Origin: Escherichia phage F13 | Sequence record: OP745617 | DNA length: 64,000 nt | Reading direction: 5' to 3' (one strand) | Shown: piece by piece, positions 1,540-64,000 of the stretch | Numbering within the stretch: position 1 is the first letter of the stretch | How the letters are laid out: each line of letters starts with the position of its first letter | Made by a program: the position numbers and the translations under genes | The notes under the pieces: generated by a model | The model's input: only the letters and a program-made list of their open reading frames with translations | The model's database searches: none | Told to the model about the DNA's origin: nothing

Positions 1540-1990
1540 ATACGCCTAAAATACGGTTAAAAATTAAGCGTATCATGGCTGCAGGCCGCGCCGTTCCTGG
1601 ATTCCTCTTTTCCAAATTGGTACACCCTTACGTCATGATACGTCATGGTTTTTTATCCGTATCAGTGTACAACCCTTGCCGCGCCTGGCTTGTACATTAA
1701 TCTTACGGATGATACGGATAAAACTGAGCATCGTTATATATAGAATTCGAAAAATTAATTAACTCCATTTTAAAAACATTTATATTAATTTTTTTCATAT
1801 CCTCATACTTATGTTAATTTATATATTTAACGTATCATCCGTAAGATATAAGTAAAAACAAAGACTTGCGGCAATACGGATGATACGTCATGATACGCTT
1901 CAACCAGCCAGCAGCGGCTAAGTCGTTGATTTGCATAACAAGCGGCAAAAGGGATGGATTTCTTTTATACGTATCAAACAGTACACCACG
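1540..1990. repeat. Composite element A: AT-rich core (about 1735-1830) flanked by inverted repeats aatcttacggatgatacgg (1699-1718) and ccgtatcatccgtaagat (1831-1847), plus extra GGATGATACG-type copies (1629-1665, 1873-1898)
   Basis: Read directly; homologous to element B at 18055-18345 (shared aatcttacggatgatacgga and tatata-gaattc-aaa-ttaatt core). Confidence 0.8.
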
Positions 1991-4244: not shown

Positions 4245-4547
4245 ATGACTACTTTAATCTCTTCCATCCTTACTTACGACGAAGACCGTTTAACCGTTCG
4301 CTCTCTTATCGCCGCCGTTAACGCCGAACTAGAATCTAGCGCCATTAAGGTCCGCGCGGTTGCCTTCGTCGGTCTTTCCTTCGACGATATCAAGTACGCC
4401 GAACGTAGCGCCATCCGCTTCGCGAAGACCGACGACGAAGCCGTTACCCTTATCGAGACGGTTACTCCGCGCGGCGAAACGTTAATTATCGTCGAGTATA
4501 TCGACGTAGAAGGCGATAAGGCTTATAAATATTTTATCGCAAAATAA
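4245..4547 (+). CDS. small early protein, paralog family member B (100 aa)
   Basis: ATG at 4245 with GGGAG RBS (the track's 4188 start is a TTG inside the -10 element); N-terminus MTTLISSI resembles the paralogs; 3' two-thirds lies in the tandem duplication. Confidence 0.6.
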   Translation: MTTLISSILTYDEDRLTVRSLIAAVNAELESSAIKVRAVAFVGLSFDDIKYAERSAIRFAKTDDEAVTLIETVTPRGETLIIVEYIDVEGDKAYKYFIAK

Positions 4548-4558
4548 CGAAAAAGTGC

Positions 4559-4587
4559 TTTACTTCTTAGTACACTAAGACTATAAT
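4559..4587 (+). promoter_or_regulatory. sigma70-like promoter TTTACT-N17-TATAAT (cassette copy 1)
   Basis: Near-consensus -10 and 17-bp spacer; followed by the 5' UTR hairpin at 4610-4630 and AGGAG at 4644-4648. Confidence 0.55.
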
Positions 4588-4609
4588 GTTTTATATCGAG
4601 AGGGGATGA

Positions 4610-4630
4610 GGTAGCGAATAGGTCGCTACC
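4610..4630 (+). ncRNA. Conserved 5' UTR stem-loop (GGTAGCGA-ATAGG-TCGCTACC)
   Basis: Perfect 8-bp stem; the minus-strand copy (GTTAGCGA/TCGTTAAC) keeps pairing through a compensatory U-A and a G-U wobble. Confidence 0.5.
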
Positions 4631-4655
4631 CTCCCGACTAACTAGGAGAATATTA

Positions 4656-4850
4656 CGCGCGGTTGCCTTCGTCGGTCTTTCCTTCGACGATATCAAGTAC
4701 GCCGAACGTAGCGCCATCCGCTTCGCGAAGACCGACGACGAAGCCGTTACCCTTATCGAGACGGTTACTCCGCGCGGCGAAACGTTAATTATCGTCGAGT
4801 ATATCGACGTAGAAGGCGATAAGGCTTATAAATATTTTATCGCAAAATAA
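4656..4850 (+). pseudogene. Duplicated 3' fragment of gene 4245-4547 lacking a start codon
   Basis: Second repeat unit encodes RAVAFVGLSF…KYFIAK in frame, but the position matching the ATG of gene 4958 reads ACG (4655-4657). Confidence 0.45.
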
Positions 4851-4861
4851 CGAAAAAGTGC

Positions 4862-4890
4862 TTTACTTCTTAGTACACTAAGACTATAAT
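4862..4890 (+). promoter_or_regulatory. sigma70-like promoter TTTACT-N17-TATAAT (cassette copy 2, drives gene 4958-5248)
   Basis: Identical to copy 1 (offset 303 bp); hairpin at 4913-4933, AGGAG at 4947-4951. Confidence 0.55.
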
Positions 4891-4957
4891 GTTTTATATC
4901 GAGAGGGGATGAGGTAGCGAATAGGTCGCTACCCTCCCGACTAACTAGGAGAATATT

Positions 4958-5248
4958 ATGATCACTTTATCCGCTATCCGTGCCGCTCGCGTCGAAACTT
5001 CCGAAAACTCTAACGTATTTGGCGAAACCTTAGAGAGCGTTTATCTCTCTAACGTTGACGCGATTATCGAGTCTATTTATGAGCCGATCAACTTCCTCGA
5101 CCTTTACAAGTATCGCGATGAGGACATCGTGTCCTACCGCGTAACGATTAACGGCTTCGTTTATACGATTACCGAAATCGGCGGCGAATATCTCGCTGTA
5201 CCGCAACTCGGCGGCGAAGTAACTTACTTTAAAATCGTAAGCCTTTAA
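4958..5248 (+). CDS. small early protein, paralog family member C (96 aa)
   Basis: ATG with AGGAG RBS; clear similarity to the 3736-4020 product (IR-A-VE, VY-NVD-IE, NG-xxE-EIG). Confidence 0.6.
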   Translation: MITLSAIRAARVETSENSNVFGETLESVYLSNVDAIIESIYEPINFLDLYKYRDEDIVSYRVTINGFVYTITEIGGEYLAVPQLGGEVTYFKIVSL

Positions 5249-5715: not shown

Positions 5716-5838
5716 GGCGCAAAACTTTCCCTTCGTTCCGAACTAAAACGAGGAATATGCCGACCCTTCGTCCGAAAATAGTACGCATGCGAAATTACAT
5801 GCATCTAGAATAATCCCCACAGATATTATCCTACACGC

Positions 5839-5903
5839 AATCATTCGCTTTCGAATCATTATGCTTCATATTATTATGCGTCGAATCATTCGCTTTCGAA
5901 TTG
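5839..5903. repeat. Direct repeat pair ATCATTCGCTTTCGAAT (5840-5856 and 5885-5901)
   Basis: Read directly; each unit contains a TTCGAA palindrome. Confidence 0.6.
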
Positions 5904-5991
5904 TAACGCTGGAAACTGTAACGGCGATTGATTATTGCGTTCGTGTGGTTTTTATGGCATGGGTCTTTTGGTGCGTTTTGCTACTTGATGG

Positions 5992-6103
5992 AATTTGCGG
6001 TACACTAATCAAAATACGACACATTTAGTCTACTAACTTTTCAAAGAAAAAGTCCTGGACAGTACCGTACTATTTTGTACCCACAGGAAATTTGCAGTAC
6101 ACT
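5992..6103 (+). repeat. Variant motif pair AATTTGC(G/A)GTACACT (5992-6006 and 6088-6103)
   Basis: Shares AATTTGC with the 2.1-3.6 kb motif family and GTACACT with the early promoter cassette. Confidence 0.5.
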
Positions 6104-6183
6104 CCTGCGCGCGGCAGGCAAAATAAAGGGCCGCACCAAGCGACCCACGATTCACGATTCACGGTTAAAGCAACATCCACCCA

Positions 6184-6564
6184 CTATTCACTCTTATGGG
6201 CATCACCAAATCCATCAGCAATCTGGCTGATCAACGACTCAATGGACACAGTTTTACCAATTGATCGAGCGGTTATGGCGAGCATATTATCAATCAAACC
6301 ATGATTGACACAATACTCTGGAGATTTAGAATCATCTTCAGAACAACCAAAAAGCTGGTCGCGCAGACTTTCAAGAGAACGCTCAATATTTTCCAACTTC
6401 TCTTCTAAATCGGATTGGCGACGTAAAACCCATGTTAAGTCTCGGTTGCCGACTTCCAACCCATCAGAATAGCAAGGTGGAGCGTCAATTTTGATGCTGG
6501 AACCAAAAGCAGTGCCGCTGCCTTTAGTATAAGTATGGCTCATAGAATCATTTTTATTTGACAT
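6184..6564 (-). CDS. hypothetical protein (126 aa from ATG 6564)
   Basis: Last gene of the minus-strand block; internal ATG with weak AAGG RBS chosen over the track start. Confidence 0.45.
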   Translation of the reverse strand: MSNKNDSMSHTYTKGSGTAFGSSIKIDAPPCYSDGLEVGNRDLTWVLRRQSDLEEKLENIERSLESLRDQLFGCSEDDSKSPEYCVNHGLIDNMLAITARSIGKTVSIESLISQIADGFGDAHKSE

Positions 6565-18054: not shown

Positions 18055-18345
18055 AGTTTTATACGTATAATGACGTATCATCCGTATCAAGTAAGTTGTT
18101 GTTTTCAAAAGAATCTTACGGATGATACGGATGATACGCGTTGCCGCCGTACTATATAGGAATTCAAATAAATTAATTTAAAATTATATATCTAATTTAA
18201 TTTTATTTTTTTATAAACTCTTATATATATGAAAAGTATCCGTATCATCCGTATCATCCGTAGCACACCAGTGATAGCGCGGCTTATACACCGATACGGA
18301 TAAAAATACGCCTCATTTTATCCGTATCATCCGTATCACACTAAT
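18055..18345. repeat. Composite element B: AT-rich core (about 18153-18236) flanked by inverted repeats TACGGATGATACGGATGATACG (18117-18139) and CGTATCATCCGTATCATCCGTA (18241-18262), extra copies at 18072-18091 and 18316-18340
   Basis: Read directly; homologous to element A. Confidence 0.8.
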
Positions 18346-53945: not shown

Positions 53946-54941
53946 TTATTTATTAGCAATATAAGCAAATTTTTGATAGTTATTTGCTTTGATGAGTTTT
54001 TCAACTTCAACAAGGTCATGAGCAACGTCATCAAGCAAAATGTTTCGCCAAGTAGCAAAGCGACCGACACTAAATACGTTCAAATCCATGGTCAGCTGTA
54101 GGAGTAGAGCGTGTCGCAAGTCTTTCGGAATGTCGACAATCTTGCCATACTTCTGGTCGACCTTTTCAACTTCTTCGAGATCGATGTCACTCCATGATAG
54201 GCCAAAGGCTGTCAATACTTCGTCAACTTCTGCACGCAACTTAATGTCACGGTAACGAGTAATGCCGCCAGCGGCTTCAACTGCGGCTTCACTTACGCTA
54301 ACCAAAGGAATTGTTTCAATGATCAGTGTGTCACCAGTGATTGATGCGCGGTAAGTTCTGACGGAGTAGTCAGGAAAGTAAATGGTTTGATACAGTGCAC
54401 ACTTGCGCTTAATCTTAAAGCGGTAAACACGAATGTTTGCCTTATCGAATGAGAAATCAATCTTTTGATCAATCCCAGCAAGCTTCATCATGACTGGCAG
54501 CGGCGACGTGTTGATGATTGGCGTCTCGCTATAGCCGCAAAGAGTATCAACAGGAGTATTAAAGAATATGCGGTCACCCAGTTTGTCGACAAGCTGATCA
54601 TAAAAGTCATCAGGCGCAATATAACGCGTTGCAGTTTTAAGCTTCATGATTGAGCGGCTACCGAATTGATTAGTGACCTTCATGGAATACATATTGGCAA
54701 GGTTGATTGGGCAATGGTCGTGGTAGTAGTTGCCGCGAAAATACACAGCCTTGTCAACTGTCACGGCCTTAAAAGGGATTCCGGTAATACGGCTTACTTC
54801 TTCGCCGCGAAATCGTAGCAAAGCCTTGTGCTGTGGCGCTCGTTCCCCTGCTTCGTACACAATGGAGTTCGGGAAGTGACACGCGGTAATAAGTCCTGCC
54901 AAACCGCCGCCGATAATCATTACAGGTTGTTTCATGTTCAT
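53946..54941 (-). CDS. FAD/NAD(P)-binding Rossmann-fold oxidoreductase
   Basis: N-terminal dinucleotide-binding motif VMIIGGGLAGLITA; 331 aa. Confidence 0.55.
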   Translation of the reverse strand: MNMKQPVMIIGGGLAGLITACHFPNSIVYEAGERAPQHKALLRFRGEEVSRITGIPFKAVTVDKAVYFRGNYYHDHCPINLANMYSMKVTNQFGSRSIMKLKTATRYIAPDDFYDQLVDKLGDRIFFNTPVDTLCGYSETPIINTSPLPVMMKLAGIDQKIDFSFDKANIRVYRFKIKRKCALYQTIYFPDYSVRTYRASITGDTLIIETIPLVSVSEAAVEAAGGITRYRDIKLRAEVDEVLTAFGLSWSDIDLEEVEKVDQKYGKIVDIPKDLRHALLLQLTMDLNVFSVGRFATWRNILLDDVAHDLVEVEKLIKANNYQKFAYIANK

Positions 54942-55074
54942 TTGTCCTTTGTGGGTGATATGAGAAGTATAATAGCTAAATTATTTTACAGCAACAAGTC
55001 ATTTCTATTTAGTACAGACGAAAAAGACCCACAACAAGTGTGGGTCAATTACCGCTATATAACCGTCCTACAGG

Positions 55075-55920
55075 TTATTCCGCTTGATCACCGTCTTCGG
55101 CATTGTCGTTGGATTCAACATCGACAAACTCGATGTGGCCCATCTCTTCCAGCTTGCTCAGGTAGGAGCGAACGGAAGCGCCAAACAGTTGATCTTTAAC
55201 TTTTTCGCCCAGCTCATCGATAGACTGCGCCACGCCAACTTCGCCTTCTTTGATCGCCGCCAGAACGCGTCCACGGGTGGAATGCTCTTGCGGCTGGCTC
55301 AGGCCATTGCCGGTGTAGATGAAGTGAGTGGCTTTTGCACGACGCTGACCGTTTGCCTTTTTAGCAGCCTTGCGCTCTGCGATGGCTTTGCGACGTTCTT
55401 CAGCTTCTTTCTTACGCTGTTCTTTCTGCTGTTCTGCAGCTTCTTTAGCCGCAATCTTAGCAGCTTCACGCTCTGCCTTGCGTTTCGCTTTAGCTTCTTC
55501 TTTGGCCTTCTCTTTTTCGGCCTTCGCTGCAGCACGGGCTTGATCACGCTCTGCTTTCTTGGCCGCAGCCTGCTCAGCTTTCAGGCGCTTGGCTTCTTCT
55601 TTAGCCTTTGCCTTTTCGATTTCTTTTGCTGCTTTAGCGGCTTCACGCTCTGCTTTCTTAGCAGCAGCCTTTTCTGCACGCTCTTTAGCTTTCTTAGCTG
55701 CTTCTTCAGCACGCTTCTGCGCCTTCTCATCAGCAGCCTGCTTGCGTTTCAGCGCAGCTTCTTCACGCTTGGCTTGTTTTTCCTGCTCACGCTTCTGGCG
55801 CTTCTCTTCGGCTTCTTTCTTTTTAGCCAGGCGTTTTTCTTCAGCCACGCGACGACGTTCTGCTGCGGCTGCTTGTTTTTCTTCTTTAGATAATACTTTG
55901 ATTGCTTCGGCCATATTCAC
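55075..55920 (-). CDS. Lys/Ala/Glu-rich low-complexity protein with globular C-terminal domain (histone H1/TolA-like)
   Basis: About 180 aa of KAE repeats (…EEKRQKREQEKQAKREEAALKRKQAADEKAQKRAEEAAKKAKERAEK…) then a ~90-aa non-repetitive domain. Confidence 0.5.
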   Translation of the reverse strand: MNMAEAIKVLSKEEKQAAAAERRRVAEEKRLAKKKEAEEKRQKREQEKQAKREEAALKRKQAADEKAQKRAEEAAKKAKERAEKAAAKKAEREAAKAAKEIEKAKAKEEAKRLKAEQAAAKKAERDQARAAAKAEKEKAKEEAKAKRKAEREAAKIAAKEAAEQQKEQRKKEAEERRKAIAERKAAKKANGQRRAKATHFIYTGNGLSQPQEHSTRGRVLAAIKEGEVGVAQSIDELGEKVKDQLFGASVRSYLSKLEEMGHIEFVDVESNDNAEDGDQAE

Positions 55921-55983
55921 AGTCCTTAAATAAATTAGTTTATTTTATATTCCCCGTTTGGGATAACTTAATTATGCCTTCAG

Positions 55984-56018
55984 TTGCCGCCAGTAGCAAC
56001 TAAAAACTATGGCGGCAA
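55984..56018 (-). other. Hairpin TTGCCGCCA-(17 nt)-TGGCGGCAA between the Dda-like and KAE-rich genes
   Basis: 9-bp GC-rich inverted repeat in the intergenic region. Confidence 0.35.
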
Positions 56019-56073
56019 TGCCACTTTAATTAAACTGATTTTCAGTTTTATTTTTCGTAAATTTACGTCAACA

Positions 56074-57258
56074 TTAACGCGCTTTCAAATCACGGTACAC
56101 GGTCAGATTCTTCTTAGCACGGGTGATAGCGGTGTACATCATCTTGGAGTACGGAACGCCGCGCAAGATTTCTTCCAGCACGCACACATTATCCCACTCG
56201 CTGCCTTGCGATTTGTGCACCGTGATGACATAGCCATAGTCCATCCCGCCAACAGCGCGTTGCGCTTCTTTGCGCACTTCCTGATCAGTAGAGAAGGAAA
56301 GAGGATTGATCTTCACCTTTATATCTTTACCATCAGTTAATGAACGCAAGTTGACATACATTATTTCATTCGACTCATCTTCATCCCTTTCAAAGTCCGG
56401 CACTGGCTCATAGCTAATAACAATCCCTTGCTCGCCATTACAGAATCCTGGACCGTGTTGGTTGAATGTGCAAATAACCTTCTCGCCGATTCCTGGCATT
56501 GGCGTTATACGTCCGCTCACTTGCCGTAATAATGAATTCCATTTATCTTTGGTGCTATTATAGGAGCAAATAATTTGATCATCTTCGCCCATGAATTTCT
56601 TCAATGCAGTAACGCGCGGCGATTCTGCCAATACTTTGACGTCATCGTATTCACGCGGGGGAAGGCGGTTGCCTTGGCGCACGAAGAAGGAGGCGCGGAT
56701 TATATTGGACTCTTTCCCTTGCCGCATGATTTCGGTTAACAGCACGTCAACGGCATCTTCAGTAAAGTAGGCGGCGGCTTTTACCGGAGGGACTTGTCCA
56801 ATGTCGCCTAATGCCAGGACAGGGATGCGGTGATCAAGAAGGCGCTCTGTGTCCCACTCGCCAACCATCGACGCTTCATCGAGTACAACAAGGTGCGGCC
56901 TTTCATCCAGCTTTGACTTTCTCGAAAAGATTGGCTCATTGTCGTCATTTACGCCGCGCACGTTATAGATGAACTGGTGAAGGGTCTTAGCGCCACGACA
57001 GCCTTTTTGCTTTAATCGGCTTGCAGCCTTTCCGGTCGGCGCAATATAGATAGCTCCATACTCACCGACACAACGGCGCACAATCTCGCGAGCAATAGAG
57101 GTTTTACCAGTCCCTGCATAGCCAGCGATGAAAAACACGCGCTTCGTCGTTTTACCGTCCTGCAATCGCTTGTACCATGCAACGGCTTTCTCGATGGCGT
57201 CGATTTGTTGCGCGTTAAACTGAATCACTGGCTCATCATTAAATTCTGGAATGTTCAT
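56074..57258 (-). CDS. Dda/RecD-like SF1 DNA helicase
   Basis: Walker A GYAGTGKTS, Walker B VVLDEASMV, C-terminal VITVHKSQGSEWDNV. Confidence 0.8.
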   Translation of the reverse strand: MNIPEFNDEPVIQFNAQQIDAIEKAVAWYKRLQDGKTTKRVFFIAGYAGTGKTSIAREIVRRCVGEYGAIYIAPTGKAASRLKQKGCRGAKTLHQFIYNVRGVNDDNEPIFSRKSKLDERPHLVVLDEASMVGEWDTERLLDHRIPVLALGDIGQVPPVKAAAYFTEDAVDVLLTEIMRQGKESNIIRASFFVRQGNRLPPREYDDVKVLAESPRVTALKKFMGEDDQIICSYNSTKDKWNSLLRQVSGRITPMPGIGEKVICTFNQHGPGFCNGEQGIVISYEPVPDFERDEDESNEIMYVNLRSLTDGKDIKVKINPLSFSTDQEVRKEAQRAVGGMDYGYVITVHKSQGSEWDNVCVLEEILRGVPYSKMMYTAITRAKKNLTVYRDLKAR

Positions 57259-57584
57259 TATAACTCCACTACGCTTTCAAGGTCCAGATATACTGGAATA
57301 AAATGGCAATCTTCTTTTCGTTCAAACATCTCACCATCAACATGGCTGAAGAAAACAGTTGTGTTTGGTATCTTCCATCCTTTCTCGTCGCGCACTAAGT
57401 ACGCCATGGATTCAACAGGGATGTACAGCGATACCGGATTTGCGGCAAAAATAAATTTGATTCTGTCTGGTTGGCCCAGAAATCGCATGATTGTTAGGCT
57501 TGAATTCAATCTTGTATTAAGGAAGGACTCAACGATTCCGACGTGTGTTGCACGTTCGCGTTGCTTCGTCTCTTTTTCGTTCAT
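57258..57584 (-). CDS. hypothetical protein (108 aa)
   Basis: First gene of the minus-strand replication operon. Confidence 0.45.
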   Translation of the reverse strand: MNEKETKQRERATHVGIVESFLNTRLNSSLTIMRFLGQPDRIKFIFAANPVSLYIPVESMAYLVRDEKGWKIPNTTVFFSHVDGEMFERKEDCHFIPVYLDLESVVEL

Positions 57585-57687
57585 TTCAGGCGACCTTTGT
57601 TAGTGCGGAAATATTTTCTGATAGTATAATTGCAGATATAGTATAAAGCAAAGTAAATCGAAATTGTGAACTAAATGGTAAATATTG

Positions 57688-57715
57688 TTGACTTTGTATC
57701 ACTCAATATTATACT
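57688..57715 (+). promoter_or_regulatory. sigma70-like promoter TTGACT-N16-TATACT for the plus-strand primase operon
   Basis: Hexamers in the 160-bp divergent intergenic region. Confidence 0.4.
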
Positions 57716-57744
57716 GCAGGTATTGATCACCAAAGGAAAGAAAG

Positions 57745-58827
57745 ATGGCTAGTTTAAGAGAAGAAGCAAAAATAATTGAAGAGTTTTTAACAGAACTCCA
57801 GAGAGGCATCCCAGAAGATGAGCGCGTCATGACGGTGTTTGCTCCTGAAGCAACGGTGCAGACTGACGAGCGCGGAAAGAAGATTAACAGCAGCTTCTGG
57901 CCTAAGCCTTGGAAGTTGGGCAAGCCGCTCATGCAGCACCAAAACGGCTATGCTTGCATCAGTTCAATGCGTAAGTCTCCCAACCCAAAGACGGGTGAGA
58001 TGCGATACTGGCGTACAGAGTCGGCCTTTGGTCACGGTATGGCGATGATGGTCGACGACATCGGTCACGGTAAAGGGTCCAAAGGCGATTTAGATTTGGA
58101 ATTCTTTTTTGAGCGACTGAAGCCGACTGTCATCGTCGAGACTTCACCGAACAACCACCAGCTTTGGTACTTCTTTAAAGAACCGATTGACCATCTTATT
58201 CAGTTCAAAGCGTTCCTTGGGTCTTTCGTTAACATGGTACTCAAGAAGGGCGGCGACAACACGATTAAAGACGTAACGCGCGTGGGCCGTGTTCCTGGGT
58301 GCATCAATAACAAGCGTGTGACTCACGACGGCCCCTATAAATATGTCGATGAGAACGGCGACCCGTTCCGCTGCCGACTTGTCCATGCAGACTACTCCTT
58401 GCGCTACACCATCGAAGACATTTGTCACGCATTTGGCTTTCACGTCGTCATGCCGCAAAAGCGTGAGATTCAAATTGACGTCGATGAATACAAGTATGAT
58501 GCCGTTTGGTATAAAATAGCCCAGCAGATTCTGGCGCGCAACAAGATGGGTGAAGGGTCTGATGGCGACGTCATCGAGAATATGTCAGGCAAGTGCCGCA
58601 TAATCTGTCCTTGGGGTGAAGAGCACACCAACGGCGACCCGTATGGCGCGTACTTTCGCGGCCCTATCCCTGGTGCAGAACATGAATTTGTGTTCGGTTG
58701 CGCCCACGACTGTCACCGGAAAGGGGAAGGCAAGAAAGGTTGGACTGCTTTTGTTGAAGCAATCGTCATGCCTTATATTGAGAATCAACTTGACATGATA
58801 AATCGTCGTGCAGGTGGCATAAAATAG
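57745..58827 (+). CDS. DNA primase, archaeo-eukaryotic primase (AEP/prim-pol) type with C-terminal zinc ribbon
   Basis: MAMMVDDIG, SPNNHQLWYFF and RVPGCIN resemble AEP motifs; C-terminal CRIICPW…CAHDCH; AAGGAAAG RBS. Confidence 0.55.
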   Translation: MASLREEAKIIEEFLTELQRGIPEDERVMTVFAPEATVQTDERGKKINSSFWPKPWKLGKPLMQHQNGYACISSMRKSPNPKTGEMRYWRTESAFGHGMAMMVDDIGHGKGSKGDLDLEFFFERLKPTVIVETSPNNHQLWYFFKEPIDHLIQFKAFLGSFVNMVLKKGGDNTIKDVTRVGRVPGCINNKRVTHDGPYKYVDENGDPFRCRLVHADYSLRYTIEDICHAFGFHVVMPQKREIQIDVDEYKYDAVWYKIAQQILARNKMGEGSDGDVIENMSGKCRIICPWGEEHTNGDPYGAYFRGPIPGAEHEFVFGCAHDCHRKGEGKKGWTAFVEAIVMPYIENQLDMINRRAGGIK

Positions 58828-58885
58828 TTTGCTTTTATTTTCATAGCAACTATAATCATTTTATGAACTGAAGCAGAGGTGATTT

Positions 58886-59032
58886 ATGCAAAGCGAAGAA
58901 TTGAACATCGAGGTTGAAGGACTGTTAAAGTCGTTAGAACCTAAACCAGTAGAGCTTCCGACCCTTCAAGGCGTCATGGCTCACCATCAATCGGCTGCGG
59001 CCCAACACTACTCTGAATTTGTTAAGGAATAA
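58886..59032 (+). CDS. small hypothetical protein (48 aa), below the ORF-track cutoff
   Basis: GAGGTG RBS 5 nt before ATG 58886; stop 3 nt before the next gene's ATG. Confidence 0.35.
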   Translation: MQSEELNIEVEGLLKSLEPKPVELPTLQGVMAHHQSAAAQHYSEFVKE

Positions 59033-59034
59033 AA

Positions 59035-59325
59035 ATGAACGAACCAAAAATGATGACCGTTGAAGAAGCACAAAAGCTTCGTGTTGAAAACGAGCTTAAG
59101 CTTGTCAACCAGATTCTTCCTTTGTTTGCAGGCTACGCAGTGGAGGAAGTTGTTGGGGCAATCCTTAACGTATCCACGCATGTCGCTATGAATCTTCAGG
59201 CCGAGCGATTCAACACACTGCTGACTATTAAAGACCTTACCGTCAGCGCAACGTTCACTGTTGAGCCAGTCAATTTTGACGAAGCTTCAGCCGCGATTCA
59301 ACAGCAAAGAGATCAAGAGGTGTAG
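59035..59325 (+). CDS. hypothetical protein (96 aa)
   Basis: ORF in the small-gene cluster. Confidence 0.45.
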   Translation: MNEPKMMTVEEAQKLRVENELKLVNQILPLFAGYAVEEVVGAILNVSTHVAMNLQAERFNTLLTIKDLTVSATFTVEPVNFDEASAAIQQQRDQEV

Positions 59326-59326
59326 C

Positions 59327-59590
59327 ATGGGCGCTTTCCGTAACGAGTTCACCTGGAACGTTACCAGCAATCTCTCGACTTGTCCTAACTGTGCAAGCGA
59401 TGTTATCAAGGTGCGGCAGCATCGCAACGCGGAGGAAGGTGCCTGGGAAGATGGCGACCTTGTAGAGTGCCAGTGCTGCTCTCATGAAGGTGTTGTTGAG
59501 CTTCAAGCTGGTGAAGGTTGCCCACCAGCAGAGCGCACAGCACGCGTTGAATGGGATGCAACAGACTCCATTGGTGATCCTCAACAGTAA
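59327..59590 (+). CDS. small zinc-ribbon-like protein (87 aa)
   Basis: AGAGGTG RBS, ATG 59327; CPNCASD…CQCCSH cysteine pairs. Confidence 0.45.
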   Translation: MGAFRNEFTWNVTSNLSTCPNCASDVIKVRQHRNAEEGAWEDGDLVECQCCSHEGVVELQAGEGCPPAERTARVEWDATDSIGDPQQ

Positions 59591-59608
59591 ATTTAGGTAT
59601 AGATACTT

Positions 59609-59713
59609 ATGAAAGCCGTAAAGAAATACACATTAATCATTTCCCTTGTCATCATCCTGGGGCTATTATATGTATTGGATATGGCATATTATTTGGCAGG
59701 GGTGAGTGGATGA
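59609..59713 (+). CDS. possible membrane peptide (34 aa)
   Basis: MKAVKKYTLIISLVIILGLLYVLDMAYYLAGVSG; weak RBS; stop overlaps next start. Confidence 0.25.
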   Translation: MKAVKKYTLIISLVIILGLLYVLDMAYYLAGVSG

Positions 59714-60000
59714 ATATTGTAATTCTTTATGGTGAAAATATCAGCGATGACGACATCGAAGTTGCCGTTGATGTTTACGGTATCGATGAGGTGAAACGTG
59801 TTGAAGAAATTAGTGGCGCAAATCTCAATGAGATTGTCAAAGAAGCTTGCTGCCCTTCGGAAGAGATTCTGGTGGTTACTAACGATGACCTGTCTTCTAT
59901 GGATCATTTGCGCCGCATCTTCACCGATTGCCAATACCTTCATGCTGTTCAATCAGTAAACAAATTGAGAAAGGCATACGCCAACCAATTTCCTTGCTGA
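59710..60000 (+). CDS. hypothetical acidic protein (96 aa)
   Basis: ORF followed by an intrinsic terminator. Confidence 0.45.
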   Translation: MNIVILYGENISDDDIEVAVDVYGIDEVKRVEEISGANLNEIVKEACCPSEEILVVTNDDLSSMDHLRRIFTDCQYLHAVQSVNKLRKAYANQFPC

Positions 60001-60050
60001 TAGTTCACCAGTTATATTGCTTTAAATTGAGTTTTACTATATTAATATAC

Positions 60051-60076
60051 AACGCCAGATTTCTGGCGTTTATTTA
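60051..60076 (+). terminator. Rho-independent terminator (AACGCCAG-attt-CTGGCGTT then TATTTA)
   Basis: 8-bp stem plus T-rich tail about 50 nt after the stop. Confidence 0.6.
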
Positions 60077-60136
60077 CCGCACCCTGAAAGGATATATCCA
60101 TGCAACAATATAACAAAGCCGTATCAGGAGGATTAA

Positions 60137-61807
60137 ATGTCAATTAATAATGACAATCTTCCAGAGGATACAGGTGATGAATTTGGTGCAATCTTTGACG
60201 AAATTCAAGATGCAGGCGTTTCGGAAGAAATGCAGGCAGCAGAGCAGCAAGGCACCAGAGCTAAAATCAGCCTTCAACATAAAGCCGTTGAAAAAGATTC
60301 AGAGCGCATGGAATGCTACGGTGAAGAAGACTTGGTTGAAAGAGCACGCTTGCTCGCCTCACTTCAGGTAATCAAGTTCCCTCACTACAAGCCGACCAAA
60401 GATGACTTCGTTCTACAGGCAGACCGGACGAGTGACATGAACCGTTATGCGGTTTTCGACGCGTTGTTTGATAAGGGAAGTGGCGTTGTTCCATTCCCTC
60501 ACAAAGATACTTTTCGTGGGCGCTTAGTCGACCATCGCGGCGAAACATTCACCGACCGTACTTTGGAAGTCACAGAGATAGTTGCCGCTGTCGACGCAGC
60601 AGGATTGTCCAACCCAAACTCACGTCAGGTCGCTCAATCCTATAAGGAATGGGCCATGCGTTATCAGCGCGACGACCTGATGGACTTCTTCTACAAGAAG
60701 CTGCCTGAATGGGACGGTACTGCGCGCATCGAGAAATACCTTATCGAGCTATTCCGACCGTTCGATACAGAGTTAAACCGACAAATCGGTGTGTATTTTT
60801 GGCTATCGCTCTACAACCGCCTGACCAACCCTGGCTGTCAAGCGCCAATTTCTATCGCGCTCATCGGCGGCCAGAACGCAGGGAAGAGTTATTTTAGCAA
60901 GCTGCTTTGCGAAGCTATTATGAACGACCGCCACGCAACACCGATTCCGTTGAACTTAGCCGCGCAAAACTTCAACCCGTTCTTGCGAGCTATTACGGGT
61001 CGCTCAATTATCGCGAACGTTGGCGAGATGACAGGCTTTAAAAAGGCCGACATCGAAAACATGAAAGCATTCCTGACTAAGACGGAAGATGACCTGGACT
61101 TCAAATTTGAAGATACGCAGGTTAAACCACGCCAGTGGATTGCGATAATGGACGGCAACGAATACGCAGGTATGCAGCGTGATGACACGGGCAACCGTCG
61201 TGTGTATCCTATCTTTGTTGGCCAACTCGCCGACAAGGACGGGCAACCGAACTGGTCGAAAGACTTCCAAGCTGACCTTTCCACTTTGAAAGAAGACGTT
61301 TGGCAATTGATGGCTGAGTGCGCTGCTTGGATGGAGAAGCACGGCGAAGCAGGTTACAACGCGTTTGTTGGTGAAACATCTCGCATGCTCACTGAGTTTA
61401 GTAAGAACGAAATGGAACGTGCACGCGGCGTTATTCGTGATGAGATGGTTGACAACGACCTTGTTGAAGTCGTCATTACCGCGCCTTATGACCGACATCA
61501 CAGCGGACGCTGGCACATAACCAGTGGTGCTATTGCTATGGGATTCAGAGCGAAGTGCGGCAAGTCGCCTTTCTCTCGTACCCTTGCGCCGCACATGTCG
61601 AAGCTTGGTTTTGAGCCTGCAACCTATCGCAACCAGCGCGGTTACTTTACGCCGCTGATTAAGAATGAAGCAGGAGAATACATTTCTGATTTGATGACCA
61701 TCTTAGCGTATCTTATCCGCGATGAGTCTGACCCTGAAGATATTGAATTCTTGAAGAAGGTTATTGAGCGTAAACGTTCTTTGGGAAGAGATAAGGATGA
61801 ATTCTGA
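60137..61807 (+). CDS. VirE/D5-like primase-associated SF3 helicase
   Basis: AGGAGG RBS; P-loop ISIALIGGQNAGKSYFSKL in the C-terminal half; 556 aa. Confidence 0.55.
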   Translation: MSINNDNLPEDTGDEFGAIFDEIQDAGVSEEMQAAEQQGTRAKISLQHKAVEKDSERMECYGEEDLVERARLLASLQVIKFPHYKPTKDDFVLQADRTSDMNRYAVFDALFDKGSGVVPFPHKDTFRGRLVDHRGETFTDRTLEVTEIVAAVDAAGLSNPNSRQVAQSYKEWAMRYQRDDLMDFFYKKLPEWDGTARIEKYLIELFRPFDTELNRQIGVYFWLSLYNRLTNPGCQAPISIALIGGQNAGKSYFSKLLCEAIMNDRHATPIPLNLAAQNFNPFLRAITGRSIIANVGEMTGFKKADIENMKAFLTKTEDDLDFKFEDTQVKPRQWIAIMDGNEYAGMQRDDTGNRRVYPIFVGQLADKDGQPNWSKDFQADLSTLKEDVWQLMAECAAWMEKHGEAGYNAFVGETSRMLTEFSKNEMERARGVIRDEMVDNDLVEVVITAPYDRHHSGRWHITSGAIAMGFRAKCGKSPFSRTLAPHMSKLGFEPATYRNQRGYFTPLIKNEAGEYISDLMTILAYLIRDESDPEDIEFLKKVIERKRSLGRDKDEF

Positions 61808-62454
61808 TGAATAAAGCAATCAACATCGCTAAATTCTTTCAACATCTTGGTGAACTGAACAAAGAAAGTGACGTTCACGGCGAAGAAATGAACCGGATGA
61901 TTTCAACCGTGTTGCGTGGCTTTGGTTATGATAAGGACTCCATCACTTGCAAGCGTACAAAACTTGTCGATGAGTCTTATCTTTACTACGTAGAGCTGCG
62001 CATTGGTAAAGATGTAATGATTATTGACCCTAAACTGGAAGGGGCGCACTGTTTTGGCGCTCATCCTCGTGCGAGTGAATTCAAGGGTCGCGGTCGCAAC
62101 CGAATCCAGAAGCTTGATGACGCAGGCGACTTGAACATTGCCATGTTCCTCAAAGAGTTCCTTGCGCTACCGAAGGTTGCATCATCCACTGGCCGTGATG
62201 ACCCTTGCAAGATTGGATTCAGAACTAAAGATTTGCGCAATGCGCTACGCAAGAAGGGATTTGTGCCTTCTTATGACAACGTCGCCGCGCTGATGGCTTC
62301 AATGGAGGAAGCTGAAGCGATGGACAAGGTGCGCGGCTATTTCCTGAATACAGGCTTCACCATGTATGAATGGCACACGAAGGGATTGACTGTCGCCGAC
62401 TTCATCTATTCATTAGAGCAGAAGTATGTACGCAATATGCAGGCCACAGGATAA
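61807..62454 (+). CDS. hypothetical protein (215 aa)
   Basis: ATGA coupling with the helicase gene. Confidence 0.5.
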   Translation: MNKAINIAKFFQHLGELNKESDVHGEEMNRMISTVLRGFGYDKDSITCKRTKLVDESYLYYVELRIGKDVMIIDPKLEGAHCFGAHPRASEFKGRGRNRIQKLDDAGDLNIAMFLKEFLALPKVASSTGRDDPCKIGFRTKDLRNALRKKGFVPSYDNVAALMASMEEAEAMDKVRGYFLNTGFTMYEWHTKGLTVADFIYSLEQKYVRNMQATG

Positions 62455-62493
62455 TTATCATCAAAATATTTGCTTTTCTGACGAGGTGATATT

Positions 62494-62718
62494 ATGATTA
62501 ATTTAGACAGGATTGAGTTAGCACTTAGTACCTTAATCAAATATTACCAGTTTGCTTTTAAGGCTAGTTTGTTTGGCTTGTTCAATCCTCATCAAGCAGC
62601 AAAGGCGAGAAGCAATGCCAACCGCCTGCGCTGCACTGGTATAGTTATCCACGACCGGATATTGACAGAGGGTAGATTCAGCCATGAATACACAGGGGAG
62701 AATAACAAATCAACGTAG
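62494..62718 (+). CDS. hypothetical protein (74 aa)
   Basis: GAGGTG RBS. Confidence 0.4.
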   Translation: MINLDRIELALSTLIKYYQFAFKASLFGLFNPHQAAKARSNANRLRCTGIVIHDRILTEGRFSHEYTGENNKST

Positions 62719-62893
62719 GGCTTTACAAGTCCTCATCCACTACCTGTCACGCCTTTATCCAACGGCGCACGAGCAGAATCCAGCGACTGGTAATCTGTTT
62801 AAGCGCCGTAACCTTTCGTTAAAAACATTCGCTTTAATCCAATATGACCGCTACCTGGACGGGCGCTACTGCGGCCCGAAGGATTCTCTATGA
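62684..62893 (+). CDS. hypothetical basic protein (69 aa)
   Basis: Overlaps the upstream ORF by 35 nt; start uncertain. Confidence 0.3.
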   Translation: MNTQGRITNQRRALQVLIHYLSRLYPTAHEQNPATGNLFKRRNLSLKTFALIQYDRYLDGRYCGPKDSL

Positions 62894-63168
62894 TTACTAC
62901 ATACAAAGTATTCTTTGTCAAGTGCACATCATCTATTGATGACCAATTTACTGCTGGCAAGAATTATCCCGTGATTTCTGAGTCAAAGCTAGATATAATC
63001 TTGAACGATCATGAAATCTATGAGCCGATGCCAGCGACTGCGTTTGATGTTATCGGTCACGTTCGGATCAAGACGAATGTTGAGACGATGCATGACCCGT
63101 TGTTCAAGAAGCAAATCAAGAATGCCATGCAAGACTTTTGCGCGGCCATGTTTAAATATTATAAGTGA
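62890..63168 (+). CDS. hypothetical protein (92 aa)
   Basis: ATGA coupling. Confidence 0.45.
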   Translation: MITTYKVFFVKCTSSIDDQFTAGKNYPVISESKLDIILNDHEIYEPMPATAFDVIGHVRIKTNVETMHDPLFKKQIKNAMQDFCAAMFKYYK

Positions 63169-63175
63169 GTTGAAG

Positions 63176-63397
63176 ATGAGCAAGAAAACCCTTAAGGCTG
63201 GCGACCGTATCCGTTGGATGTCAGGACAGAATATGCGCGCAGGCACCATCCTTGAGCTGGACCAGTACCTTACCGATTCACGCGGTCGCAATCATTACCG
63301 CGTTCGAATCGATACAGTAAAAGAAGATGACAAGTCACTGGTTGGTGAAGTCGTCATCGTAACTCCACGTCAAATCAAGGCGGCTTGTGAAGCGTGA
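63176..63397 (+). CDS. hypothetical protein (73 aa)
   Basis: Internal ATG 63176 chosen; the track's N-terminal extension overlaps the previous gene. Confidence 0.4.
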   Translation: MSKKTLKAGDRIRWMSGQNMRAGTILELDQYLTDSRGRNHYRVRIDTVKEDDKSLVGEVVIVTPRQIKAACEA

Positions 63398-63549
63398 ATA
63401 AATATCAATTTAACGATAATAAAATCAGTAAGGCAGACGCAATCAAGCAGCTTCGTCGCGTACTTGAAGCCAGCGGTCACACGAAAGAGCGTGCACGCGT
63501 CCTGGCCAAAGAGCATTATAAACGTTTTGTGTCACAAATCAGAGGTTAA
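63394..63549 (+). CDS. small hypothetical protein (51 aa, GTG start)
   Basis: GTGA overlap with previous stop. Confidence 0.3.
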   Translation: MNKYQFNDNKISKADAIKQLRRVLEASGHTKERARVLAKEHYKRFVSQIRG

Positions 63550-63551
63550 TT

Positions 63552-64000
63552 ATGATCATCCATCGCCCTTTAATGTTAAGTAAAACAGAAGCAGCAATTA
63601 TTTTAGCGGCAGCAAGTCAATGTAACGTTCCAATTCCATTAAGGATGAAAATAAATAAATTCATCGACAGCGAGTTTGCAGATGTTGAGTCATTCGATAT
63701 TTTACCGCCAACCAAAAGGCATGTTGAAAGACTTGTACATCACCAATCACGTTGCGCAAAAGTTCCTATTCAAACTTATGTTGATAAAAAGCCGCGCCTT
63801 AAACCTGTTCCGGCTGATAAGATAGAAGTTGGTGACGTTATTGTTTGCGTATATTACGGCAGTCAGATTTTCAATGCTGTTGTAGTAAGGCGATACAGCA
63901 TGAACGGTTGCCAATACATGGAAGTGACGAACGCAAAGAAAGAACCTGGCAGCTTGAACGTGGCTTACGCATTAAGGGAATTCAGCAGTCCTTCTTGCAC
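63552..64000 (+). CDS. hypothetical protein, 5' part (runs off the window end)
   Basis: AGAGG RBS 6 nt upstream of ATG 63552; open frame to the window edge. Confidence 0.4.
   Translation, partial: MIIHRPLMLSKTEAAIILAAASQCNVPIPLRMKINKFIDSEFADVESFDILPPTKRHVERLVHHQSRCAKVPIQTYVDKKPRLKPVPADKIEVGDVIVCVYYGSQIFNAVVVRRYSMNGCQYMEVTNAKKEPGSLNVAYALREFSSPSC

Follow-up and report, generated by a model that had tools for sequence, protein, structure and literature searches.

Gene content and signals of the locus

The analysis covered a 64,000-nucleotide stretch of DNA from Escherichia phage F13 (OP745617), hereafter the window, to which all positions refer. The region of interest is 100% identical to GenBank OP352608 (Escherichia phage vB_EcoM_SP13, Wifcevirus) and carries on its plus strand a primase gene, five small ORFs, a terminator-like hairpin and the gene of a P-loop protein, all of which were recovered where a sequence-only reading of the same DNA had placed them. 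OP352608 labels the two large genes 'DNA primase' and 'DNA primase/helicase protein CDS', with DNA primase as the product name of both; primase and helicase as a replication module are thus already annotated.

The first gene (57745..58827, +) encodes a stand-alone RepB-type DNA primase of the AEP superfamily with 360 aa. The protein matches the Pfam family RepB_primase (PF16793) with E 4e-36 and 125 bits (cut-off 24.3) and, end to end, phrog_4861 'DNA primase' (E 4e-197). Its AF2 model (pLDDT 89) adopts the AEP fold, and a Foldseek search with this model retrieved the AEP domain of S-2L PrimPol (6zp9, E 5e-8) and RepB' (3h20 and 3h25, E 2e-7), so that the earlier assignment as an AEP-type primase holds. 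The catalytic domain spans approximately aa 40-237, with D104/D105 aligned to the RepB' segment LVDDL, and the C-terminal domain contains the zinc motif C288-x5-H294-x24-C319-x-H321-x2-(C/H)324, encoded by nt 58606-58716. The putative catalytic and zinc-binding residues D104, D105, D171, D176, R179, R182, C288, H294, C319 and H321 are invariant in 51/51 homologues, all of which carry C or H at position 324. Between SP13 and FEC19 the pN/pS of the primase is ~0.015.

The P-loop protein (60137..61807, +; 556 aa) is a VapE-family SF3 helicase. Like the primase it scored above the Pfam cut-off, here against VapE-like_dom (PF05272; E 1.6e-28, 100 bits, cut-off 25), and it aligns over its full length with phrog_4630 (E 4e-254) and, by sequence against the PDB, matches SaPI1 Rep1 (7pds, E 4e-11). 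An N-terminal tier (aa ~30-190) is followed by the P-loop ATPase and a C-terminal winged-helix-like unit (aa ~436-504). The ATPase motifs comprise Walker A (G244-x-Q-x2-G-K250-S), E297, N341 and R354/R355; their residues, including the arginine finger, are invariant among homologues. Foldseek analysis of the AF2 model (pLDDT 89) again gave 7pds as best match (E 1e-16, ~480 columns, nearly full length), followed by NrS-1, ASFV PrimPol, poxvirus D5/E5 and SaPI5 PriRep5, which bears out the former description as VirE/SF3-like. The pN/pS (SP13 vs FEC19) is ~0.02. Directly downstream, a gene for a 215-aa protein (61807..62454, +) is kept in the nearest relative L015 (55%), in L016 (31%) and in Pantoea phage Kyle (30%); the protein has no family match in Pfam or PHROG. 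An overlap between its start codon and the stop codon of the helicase gene makes translational coupling probable.

The five small ORFs between the two genes lie on the same strand and encode 48, 96, 87, 34 and 96 aa. The first (58886..59032; pN/pS ~0.26 between SP13 and FEC19, as for all following values) is acidic and has a weak homologue solely in L015 (35%). The first 96-aa ORF (59035..59325; pN/pS ~0.10) likewise has a copy solely in L015, at 46% identity, and found no match in Pfam, PHROG, NCBIfam or PADLOC. The third ORF (59327..59590; pN/pS ~0.06) encodes an 87-aa Cys4 zinc-ribbon-like protein, designated Zn87, which a start at the TTG of position 59261 would lengthen to 109 aa. It carries the CxxC...CxCC motif noted before (C19-P-N-C22 ... 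C48-Q-C50-C51, i.e. CPNC...CQCC), whose cysteines are retained in L015 (77%), in L016 (56%) and in the diverged homologue of Pantoea phage Kyle. Zn87 matches phrog_4446 (E 1e-10), Pfam zinc ribbons below threshold only, and one real match was found among 1.8 billion representative proteins. The former mention of several zinc-ribbon genes has to be corrected, as the motif occurs in just one of the five small proteins, and the primase has a zinc finger of its own. The fourth ORF (59609..59713; 34 aa) is hydrophobic, putatively coding and possibly a small membrane peptide; it has a 55% copy in L015, and SP13 and FEC19 differ at too few of its positions for a pN/pS value. The second 96-aa ORF, s96b (59710..60000; pN/pS ~0.42), belongs to a small family with the motif MKIxxLYG...ILxVTNDP/D that has no relative in Pfam, PHROG or the PDB. 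Judged by pN/pS, the small ORFs other than the 34-aa one are not chance ORFs.

A consensus scan suggested several transcription signals. A sigma-70-like promoter candidate (TTGACT-N16-TATACT; 57688..57715, +) lies upstream of the primase gene together with a divergent candidate (57651-57623, -), and a promoter-like site (TTGCTT-N16-TATAAT; 58829..58856, +) precedes the small-ORF block. A weak promoter-like sequence (TTGCTT...TATATT; ~60018-60045, +) is located just upstream of the hairpin, which together with its short T-rich tail occupies 60051..60077 (+; hairpin 60051-60070). The hairpin consists of AACGCCAG-ATTT-CTGGCGTT, then TATTTAC, with a folding energy of -12.4 kcal/mol (z -4.7). It is kept in L015, L016 and Pantoea phage Kyle, including one compensatory change from a C-G to a T-A pair, and the vB_EcoM_WFC record (NC_048195) has a terminator annotated at this position. 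The terminator seen earlier between the two genes is thus present as a putative one, which the consensus terminator scan did not list because its T-run is short. As it lies downstream of a promoter-like site, the hairpin could instead be a 5' mRNA structure. The surrounding intergenic DNA is almost invariant in five Wifcevirus genomes (57540-57750) and nearly invariant among Wifcevirus genomes at 58770-58890 and 60000-60150; synonymous sites near these stretches differ by ~40%.

On the opposite strand a divergent operon of the replication gene set (56074..57584, -) encodes a protein of 108 aa (57258-57584) and an SF1 helicase of Dda/RecD-like type (56074-57258; Pfam AAA_30 and UvrD_C_2, phrog_325 Dda-like helicase with E 1e-99), and it is syntenic in every relative examined. 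A domain search further identified an SNF2-type helicase at 44928-46451. Elsewhere in the window two elements combining iterons with AT-rich DNA are candidate origins. Candidate B (18074..18338) consists of inverted ATCCGTATC iterons flanking an AT-rich stretch of ~95 bp, is conserved in 28/28 Wifcevirus records and is matched in PB1 by an analogous element in syntenic position; candidate A (1629..1899) is a paralogous iteron and AT-rich element.

Synteny and the variable interval

Comparison with related phages revealed a fixed gene order with variable content in between. In an IMG/VR scan a RepB primase was encoded upstream on the same strand in 47/51 loci with an orthologous helicase, at distances from -4 bp (overlap) to 8487 bp. 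The order from primase to helicase was also kept among a wider set of 54 related phage loci with both genes, in which gap ORFs of at least 40 aa were counted. In this set the two genes overlap by 4 bp at one extreme and lie 8.5 kb or more apart at the other, and the gap held between 0 and about 19 ORFs, most of them specific to a lineage: the 182 gap ORFs fell into 89 BLAST families, 53 of them limited to one locus. For example, the gap measures 11 bp in FoX6 (0 ORFs), about 2.7 kb in Burkholderia phage Karil-Mokiny-1 (4 ORFs) and about 5.8 kb in Serratia phage SMP (16 ORFs). None of the five Wifcevirus small ORFs was detected in PB1, FoX6 or the Burkholderia, Serratia and Salmonella phages. 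Since related phages fill the same slot with zero to about nineteen unrelated genes, the arrangement with intervening genes is ordinary.

Members of the s96b family, where they occur, are encoded in the gap that precedes the helicase gene; such homologues were found in L015, L016 and Pantoea phage Kyle and, by jackhmmer, also in the loci L023, L025, L026 and L048.

Comparison with known primase-helicase systems

A close counterpart is the SaPI1 pair, whose primase, as in the phage, has a gene of its own upstream of the helicase gene, while in SaPI5 the primase is fused (PMC9371898); the fused alternative, PriRep5 (7OLA), also has parallels among relatives. Rep1 (7PDS), an SF3 self-loading initiator-helicase (PMC9371898), shares its three-tier SF3 architecture with the phage helicase, although the identity is merely 16-17%. 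Furthermore, the SaPI origin lies directly downstream of rep, whereas no iterons adjoining the helicase gene were found in this phage; the phage genes are 1.3 kb apart with small genes between them, and the phage is a virulent myovirus of a Gram-negative host and not a satellite.

RepB' of RSF1010 (3H20/3H25) belongs to the same Pfam family as the primase (PF16793, above the gathering score) and has the same fold and the VDD and ETSPxNxQ motifs, yet the structurally aligned residues are only ~12-14% identical. C-terminally the phage protein has a C-H-C-(C/H) zinc-finger domain, RepB' a helix-bundle domain instead. Priming by RepB' takes place at specific ssi hairpins of the plasmid, and to our knowledge no ssi-type priming sites are known for the phage primase. 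PrimPol and the herpesvirus UL52-type primases likewise place a zinc motif after the AEP catalytic domain, with identical ligand order and comparable spacing (C-x5-H-x24-C-x4-C/H in the phage, C419-x6-H426-x19-C446-x4-C451 in human PrimPol). In PrimPol this C-H-C-C finger (C419, H426, C446, C451) is required for priming (PMC10415149). The likeness is a resemblance only: no sequence-level match of the phage primase to UL52 or PrimPol was found, and its catalytic domain is nearest to RepB' and S-2L PrimPol.

NrS-1 polymerase, poxvirus D5/E5 and ASFV PrimPol have the SF3 helicase core in common with the phage helicase. In Vibrio phage 1.021.A, gp40 combines in one 864-aa chain a homologous RepB-like primase, the same zinc finger (CPW..H..C..C) and, after these, a DUF5906 P-loop domain. 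In all of these the functions are fused, unlike the separate polypeptides of the phage. The top structural matches of the primase in BFVD were also fusion proteins, of VapE/NrS-1 type with 760-900 aa. Fused versions thus exist in other phages, but the statement that the two functions are usually fused does not hold within this orthologous family, where no fused partner was found among the 120 primase and 120 helicase homologues listed as closest. The orthologues gp75 and gp77 of PB1 (Pbunavirus; primase ~64%, helicase ~44% identical) show the same gene order, and PB1-like phages also share the divergent Dda-like helicase operon, but the 338-bp gap of PB1 contains just one ORF, unrelated and 61 aa long, vs five ORFs in 1309 bp in Wifcevirus.

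Probable insertion of accessory genes into a replication module

We read the region as the pri-rep (primase-helicase) module of a virulent PB1-like myovirus, in which an ancestrally adjacent pair was split by insertion of accessory genes (probability roughly 0.8). The insertion proposed earlier fits the synteny, given mostly unrelated cargo and a gap that varies from -4 bp to 8.5 kb or more, whereas the modular primosome offered beside it found no support, most relatives lacking all five small genes.

In its most plausible form, the latter would make Zn87 and/or the s96b-like protein a dedicated loader, adaptor or regulator bridging primase and SF3 helicase. Both genes are under purifying selection and occur, in unchanged order, in L015, L016 and Pantoea phage Kyle, which are enterobacterial sister lineages. 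The divergence of Zn87 does not exceed that of the helicase (77% vs 75% identity to L015, 56% vs 56% to L016), and s96b-like genes, the most widespread gap family by BLAST clustering (14/54 loci), lie directly upstream of the helicase gene in L015, L016, Kyle, L025 and L048, loci that were checked singly. Because Zn87 has diverged about as little as the helicase and s96b-like genes occur in 14/54 gaps, the two are not random cargo and may have some functional tie to the helicase. A bridging role nevertheless appears unlikely: most relatives that encode orthologues of the two large proteins lack Zn87 and s96b, the gap is free of ORFs in at least six loci and the PB1 group has its one unrelated ORF, the primase already contains an invariant zinc finger, neither Zn87 nor s96b resembles any known replication factor, and the remaining small ORFs show turnover even among the closest relatives.

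That the two large proteins are not partners, with the VapE protein confined, for instance, to origin binding or transcription control or acting as a non-replicative ATPase, while the Dda-like or SNF2-type helicase unwinds the fork, would make 'split primase-helicase' a misnomer; the two further helicases and the several kilobases between the genes in some relatives speak for it, but the conserved order on one strand in 47/51 orthologous loci despite large cargo turnover, the homologous domains in one chain in other phages, the invariant ATPase motifs and arginine finger, and a closest solved relative, Rep1, that is a replicative initiator-helicase with a cognate primase render it highly improbable.

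According to the preferred reading of accessory-gene insertion, the helicase would act as a hexameric SF3 enzyme like Rep1, with N-terminal tier, ATPase ring and C-terminal winged helix, presumably loading itself at an origin and opening the DNA for the phage DnaE-type polymerase. The primase would lay primers on the strands exposed by the helicase, its C-terminal finger probably gripping the template and the initiating nucleotide in the manner of PrimPol and UL52-type primases. Both genes would have been neighbours in the ancestor; in some other phages they are fused. The Wifcevirus cassette comprises its own promoter-like site, the five small accessory genes and the terminator-like hairpin, after which the helicase gene is apparently re-promoted. 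The junction between primase and helicase would be a permissive insertion slot in this phage group, and the small genes would be lineage-restricted cargo, most likely with early accessory or host-interaction roles, and not obligatory primosome subunits.

A split primase and helicase

Across 57000-62500 the window and Escherichia phage vB_EcoM_SP13 share 100% identity (OP352608.1, Wifcevirus; adding 2068 to a position of the OP352608 record gives the window position), and 27 further Wifcevirus records match this region with 93-98% identity. The Pseudomonas Pbunavirus (PB1) group comprises distant relatives of this genus (PMC11990801). GenBank labels the two large genes 'DNA primase' and 'DNA primase/helicase' and lists those lying in between as hypothetical; in the literature no paper was found which treats the Wifcevirus replication genes further than annotation. 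Every element described in the sequence-only reading, namely the primase ORF, five small ORFs, a hairpin and the P-loop ORF, is present at the locus, and its primase and helicase domain calls were confirmed by the domain search (PF16793 and PF05272 above their cut-offs), with which the modelled folds agree.

The primase is encoded on the plus strand at 57745-58827 (360 aa). Its residues 40-237 match Pfam RepB_primase PF16793 (E 4.1e-36, 125 bits versus a cut-off of 24.3), and the protein corresponds end to end to phrog_4861 'DNA primase'. With the AlphaFold2 model (mean pLDDT 89, alignment of 51 homologues), the best PDB match in Foldseek was the AEP domain of cyanophage S-2L PrimPol (6zp9, E 4.7e-8), together with RSF1010 RepB' (3h20, E 1.6e-7; 3h25, E 1.3e-6) and, furthermore, LigD-Pol, CRISPR-associated Prim-Pol (CAPP) and poxvirus D5 primase domains. 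In the profile alignment VDDIG...ETSPNNHQLW of the primase family is placed on LVDDL...ETSPKNYQAW of RepB', D104-D105 corresponding to the DD of LVDDL, and D104, D105, D171, D176, R179 and R182 are invariant in 51/51 sequences. Judged by profile and modelled fold, the protein belongs to the RepB_primase/AEP superfamily with its catalytic residues intact, and priming activity is predicted. C-terminal to the AEP domain, the last third carries an equally intact zinc-binding motif, C-x5-H-x24-C-x4-C/H, in which C288, H294, C319 and also H321 are invariant in the 51 sequences and position 324 is Cys in 39 and His in 12. The C-H-C-C finger of human PrimPol (C419, H426, C446, C451) is required for priming, not for polymerisation (PMC10415149), and the primase finger is like this PrimPol/UL52 type in ligand order (C, H, C, C) and spacing. 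PDB profile searches with the primase returned only RepB' and chance matches and no sequence link to the UL52/PrimPol finger; the likeness is a resemblance of pattern, short of demonstrated homology.

In Pseudomonas phage 6917 (OL362268.1) the primase match at 54467-56720 consists of two pieces spread over 2.25 kb, compared with ~1.03 kb in other Pbunaviruses, which suggests an insertion (intron or homing element) within that primase gene.

The helicase ORF (60137-61807, plus strand, 556 aa) matches Pfam VapE-like_dom PF05272 with aa 189-407 (E 1.6e-28, 100 bits versus a cut-off of 25). Its sole sequence relative in the PDB is 7pds, the SaPI1 Rep1-DNA complex (E 4e-11), and its AlphaFold2 model (pLDDT 89, 56 homologues) matches the same structure with E 1e-16 across ~480 columns in Foldseek, the next matches being the NrS-1 helicase region (E 5e-8) and ASFV PrimPol, monkeypox E5 / vaccinia D5 and SaPI5 PriRep5 (7ola), each at ~E 1e-6. 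The ATPase motifs of this Rep1-like SF3 helicase are intact: G244, Q246, G249 and K250 of Walker A, the acidic Walker B residue E297, the sensor N341 and the arginine finger R354/R355 are invariant in the 56 sequences. By profile and model the protein is a member of the VapE-like SF3 family, for which hexamer formation and unwinding are predicted. Rep1 of SaPI1 is an SF3 self-loading initiator-helicase whose C-terminal winged helix reads iterons (PMC9371898). In our model aa 436-504 follow a helix-strand-helix-helix-strand-strand order, which is the winged-helix pattern; the Rep1 alignment (~480 columns) was made with full-length Rep1, and the unit is a putative winged helix.

Directly after this gene, a 215-aa protein (61807-62454), whose start overlaps the helicase stop codon and which gave no family match, is kept in the relatives' loci L015 (55%) and L016 (31%) and in Pantoea phage Kyle (30%).

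The sequence-only reading had regarded such partner genes as usually fused or adjacent. In the window they are two ORFs, with 1309 bp from primase stop to helicase start, and yield two polypeptides, unlike the fused PriRep5, D5 and NrS-1 type. All 120 primase homologues among the matches listed are ~340-410 aa long and carry PF16793 alone; the 120 helicase homologues listed all carry PF05272 and none a primase domain, three of them having in addition the related P-loop family DUF5906 (PF19263). No fused primase-helicase polypeptide was found among these 120 primase and 120 helicase homologues. The best structural matches of the primase model in BFVD are proteins of 760-900 aa annotated as VapE or NrS-1-like helicase, and in gp40 of Vibrio phage 1.021.A (864 aa) an N-terminal region 25% identical to the window primase, with DD motif and a CPWxEEHT...C-HHGN-C finger, precedes a DUF5906 P-loop domain. 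Since fused versions exist in distant phages and none among the listed orthologues, the split/fused dichotomy is real and equals the known situation in SaPI1, where rep is preceded by its cognate primase as an independent gene, and SaPI5, where primase and helicase are fused (PMC9371898). The earlier statement consequently applies to adjacency in some relatives and to fusion in distant phages, and fails for fusion among the listed orthologues.

Gene order and content between primase and helicase

Synteny was analyzed in 80 IMG/VR loci around helicase relatives, of which 51 contain an orthologous helicase (at least 36% identity). A RepB-type primase gene lies upstream on the same strand in 47 of these 51 loci; of the four exceptions, two are truncated near the helicase gene and the remaining pair show no primase in 5.6-7.2 kb of sequence upstream. 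The linkage of the two genes is conserved and the slot between them is variable, with distances of -4, 2, 15, 41, 74, 85, 190 and 276-338 bp (PB1 group 338) at the short end, then 486-919, 1309 (Wifcevirus), 1331-1513 and 2262 bp, and finally 2468 (Pantoea phage Kyle), 3271 (BcepF1), 5762-6433 (Serratia and Erwinia phages) and 8487 bp. Annotated genomes likewise range from an 11-bp gap with no ORF in Xanthomonas phage FoX6 via one 61-aa ORF in PB1 and four ORFs in Burkholderia phage Karil-Mokiny-1 to 16 in Serratia phage SMP. In Salmonella phage vB_SeEM_UALMA_PCSE1 (PQ314491; locus L007, 6326-7555) a VapE helicase homologue lies directly 3' of the primase and is unannotated, apparently since the gene crosses the point at which the circular record begins. 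When the comparison was widened to 54 loci carrying both genes, each gap held 0-19 ORFs of at least 40 aa, and the total of 182 ORFs falls into 89 BLAST families, 53 of which occur at a single locus. Read from gene order and content, this pattern is the signature expected of an insertion hot-spot between ancestrally adjacent genes. We attribute the separation of the two genes to accessory-gene insertion at this hot-spot, as had been proposed from the sequence, and regard the intervening genes as exchangeable cargo.

The Wifcevirus cargo consists of five ORFs on the primase strand: 58886-59032 (48 aa), 59035-59325 (the first 96-aa ORF), 59327-59590 (Zn87, 87 aa, with C19PNC22...C48QC50C51), 59609-59713 (34 aa, hydrophobic) and 59710-60000 (s96b, the second 96-aa ORF). 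A zinc-binding motif is found in only one of these small proteins, and the zinc-ribbon genes originally postulated in the plural reduce to Zn87. In a comparison of SP13 with FEC19, the primase and the helicase had pN/pS values of ~0.015 and ~0.02, Zn87 one of ~0.06, the first 96-aa ORF ~0.10, s96b ~0.42 and the 48-aa ORF ~0.26; all six values indicate purifying selection, the 34-aa ORF having too few changes for a ratio. A role of the small ORFs in defence or anti-defence was rejected, as PADLOC gave nothing below E 0.02 and NCBIfam only sub-threshold CxxC noise.

Conserved signals and candidate origins

Five intergenic stretches (57540-57750, 58770-58890, 59550-59700, 60000-60150 and 62400-62550) are near-invariant among five Wifcevirus genomes, whose synonymous sites diverge by ~40%. 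Within such stretches lie sigma-70-like sites at 57688 (TTGACT-N16-TATACT), 58829 (TTGCTT-N16-TATAAT) and 62470 (TTGCTT-N17-TATGAT) and a divergent one on the minus strand at 57651; several of the stretches share a promoter-like TTGCTT-N16/17-TATAAT. A weaker TTGCTT...TATATT directly precedes the hairpin at 60051-60070 (-12.4 kcal/mol, z -4.7), which is followed by TATTTAC (to 60077) and labelled a terminator in the WFC record. L015, L016 and Kyle all keep the hairpin, a C-G pair being replaced by T-A in one compensatory change; the structure is strong and conserved, but its tail has only 4 T in 8 and it was not called by a consensus terminator scan. With promoter-like sites and hairpin placed in near-invariant stretches, the small-gene block looks like a cassette with its own predicted promoter and stop signal, after which the helicase gene is probably re-promoted from a further predicted promoter. 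A 39-aa ORF at 59994-60113 (Bas98_0064 of Bas98) is unlikely to be a gene, as it overlaps the invariant promoter/hairpin region with 1 change in 120 nt; its conservation points to what is probably a non-coding element. A search of 57000-64000 for known RNA families gave no match with E of 1 or less. The idea that the hairpin recurs as an ssi-like priming site was dismissed, since GCCAG-N3-9-CTGGC occurs only 3 times in the window and the others (7200, 11352) have unrelated loops and contexts.

In SaPI Rep1 modules an iteron/AT-rich origin lies directly downstream of the helicase gene, whereas the window helicase is without iterons nearby: a repeat search of 57200-64000 revealed only short two-copy chance matches, and a SaPI-style origin next to the helicase gene was rejected. 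The near-iteron AGCCGTATC at 60117-60125 in the helicase leader has no conserved counterpart in L015, L016 or Kyle and was likewise discarded as chance. Elsewhere in the window, two paralogous elements were identified at ~1629-1899 (locus A) and ~18074-18338 (locus B), in which inverted 9-bp ATCCGTATC repeats flank an AT-rich stretch (1721-1830 and 18141-18235, respectively). All nine exact ATCCGTATC 9-mers of the window fall within the two loci, and of all 80-bp segments in the 64 kb only their AT-rich stretches attain 82% A+T or more. PB1 (NC_011810) possesses an analogous AT-rich pair built on a different repeat, GGTAATTTGG: element 1 (L097 12620-13100), at which the A+T content of the first 50 kb peaks, is syntenic and lies upstream of the protease gene, and element 2 (L004 8380-8620, record ~58.8-59.04 kb) directly follows the VapE helicase gene, within a 900-bp gap that carries no annotation. 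Origins of SaPI and of other SF3 initiators have an AT-rich core between inverted iterons (PMC9371898). Since loci A and B share this layout, we regard them as candidate origins, to which the helicase may bind. Locus B, conserved in 28/28 Wifcevirus records, occupies the 565-bp gap that precedes the gene for the head maturation protease, and locus A adjoins position 1 of the GenBank record; it is possible that the two loci serve another role, in late-promoter control or terminus processing.

At 4353-4958 a 303-bp unit is duplicated in tandem without mismatch (2.0 copies, 100% match); no ORF of at least 80 aa spans the duplication, which could be real or an assembly artefact.

Older residents of the slot and implications for replication

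None of the five Wifcevirus small genes was detectable in the PB1, FoX6, Burkholderia, Serratia or Salmonella phages examined. The nearest relative outside the genus, the 72.5-kb metagenomic contig L015 (primase 89%, helicase 75%), keeps all five in order plus a 164-aa ORF. In L016 (primase 69%, helicase 56%) only Zn87 (56%) and s96b (41%) are kept; Pantoea phage Kyle has an s96b homologue (46%) and, in the place of Zn87, encodes a Cys4 protein that has diverged. The two Cys pairs of Zn87, CPxC...CxC(C), are conserved in Wifcevirus, the protein matches P0122 and P0243, L016 and Kyle; P0244 was rejected as a second homologue, being a repetitive spurious ORF. Against curated zinc-ribbon families Zn87 stayed below threshold throughout (A2L_zn_ribbon 15.5 bits versus 22.9, Zn_Ribbon_YjdM 14.7 versus 30.8), as it did against HypA (16.4 versus 88.1), and its one PHROG match is of unknown function. 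Remote homologues were limited to two clusters in 5.8 billion proteins and one real match in an exhaustive search of 1.8 billion representatives, and cultured phages beyond Wifcevirus gave no match.

The protein s96b represents a small family (motif MKIxxLYG...ILxVTNDP/D...FPEIxSIR) present in 14 of 54 PB1-like loci according to BLAST clustering, with no match in Pfam, PHROG or PDB-profile searches. At every individually checked locus it lies in the gap and adjoins the VapE helicase gene just upstream (window 59710-60000, L015 4551-4847, L016 5538-5837, L024 8454-8756, L048 8486-8824 and L025 8457-8810); in L023 and L026 the family domain forms the N-terminus of 227-278-aa proteins.

As Zn87 and s96b persist in relatives, they are older residents of the slot and may be functionally tied to the helicase. 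Their persistence in the enterobacterial branch is the sole observation in favour of a modular primosome. Most of the phages that share this primase and helicase, however, manage without them, and as the primase carries its own zinc finger, nothing points to a need for a further zinc-ribbon subunit; we therefore assign this explanation a low probability. It would be a long shot that s96b and, in the enterobacterial branch, Zn87 are unrecognised primosome accessory subunits (e.g. a loader or adaptor) and that the helicase fires from twin origins at 1.6-1.9 and 18.07-18.34 kb whose iterons co-vary with phage genus.

We infer that a helicase hexamer would load at an origin and unwind the DNA, which would serve the DnaE-type polymerase and epsilon-like exonuclease of the phage (encoded at 46857-49754 and further upstream), and that the primase would prime the strands laid open. 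The Dda-like (56074-57258) and SNF2 (44928-46451) helicases would probably have auxiliary roles.

The primase-helicase arrangement is a known module type in an already annotated phage and has little significance outside annotation. The paired 'DNA primase' labels of Wifcevirus and PB1-like phages are resolved into two different proteins: an AEP primase of the RepB type, bearing a zinc finger like that of PrimPol, and an SF3 helicase resembling Rep1. Wifcevirus phages are now held in the BASEL collection, unusually fast replication has been reported, and Pbunavirus relatives are used in therapy (PMC11990801). The corrected replisome parts list and the two candidate origins provide concrete targets for replication studies, and the primase-helicase slot is a handy hunting ground for lineage-specific early genes.
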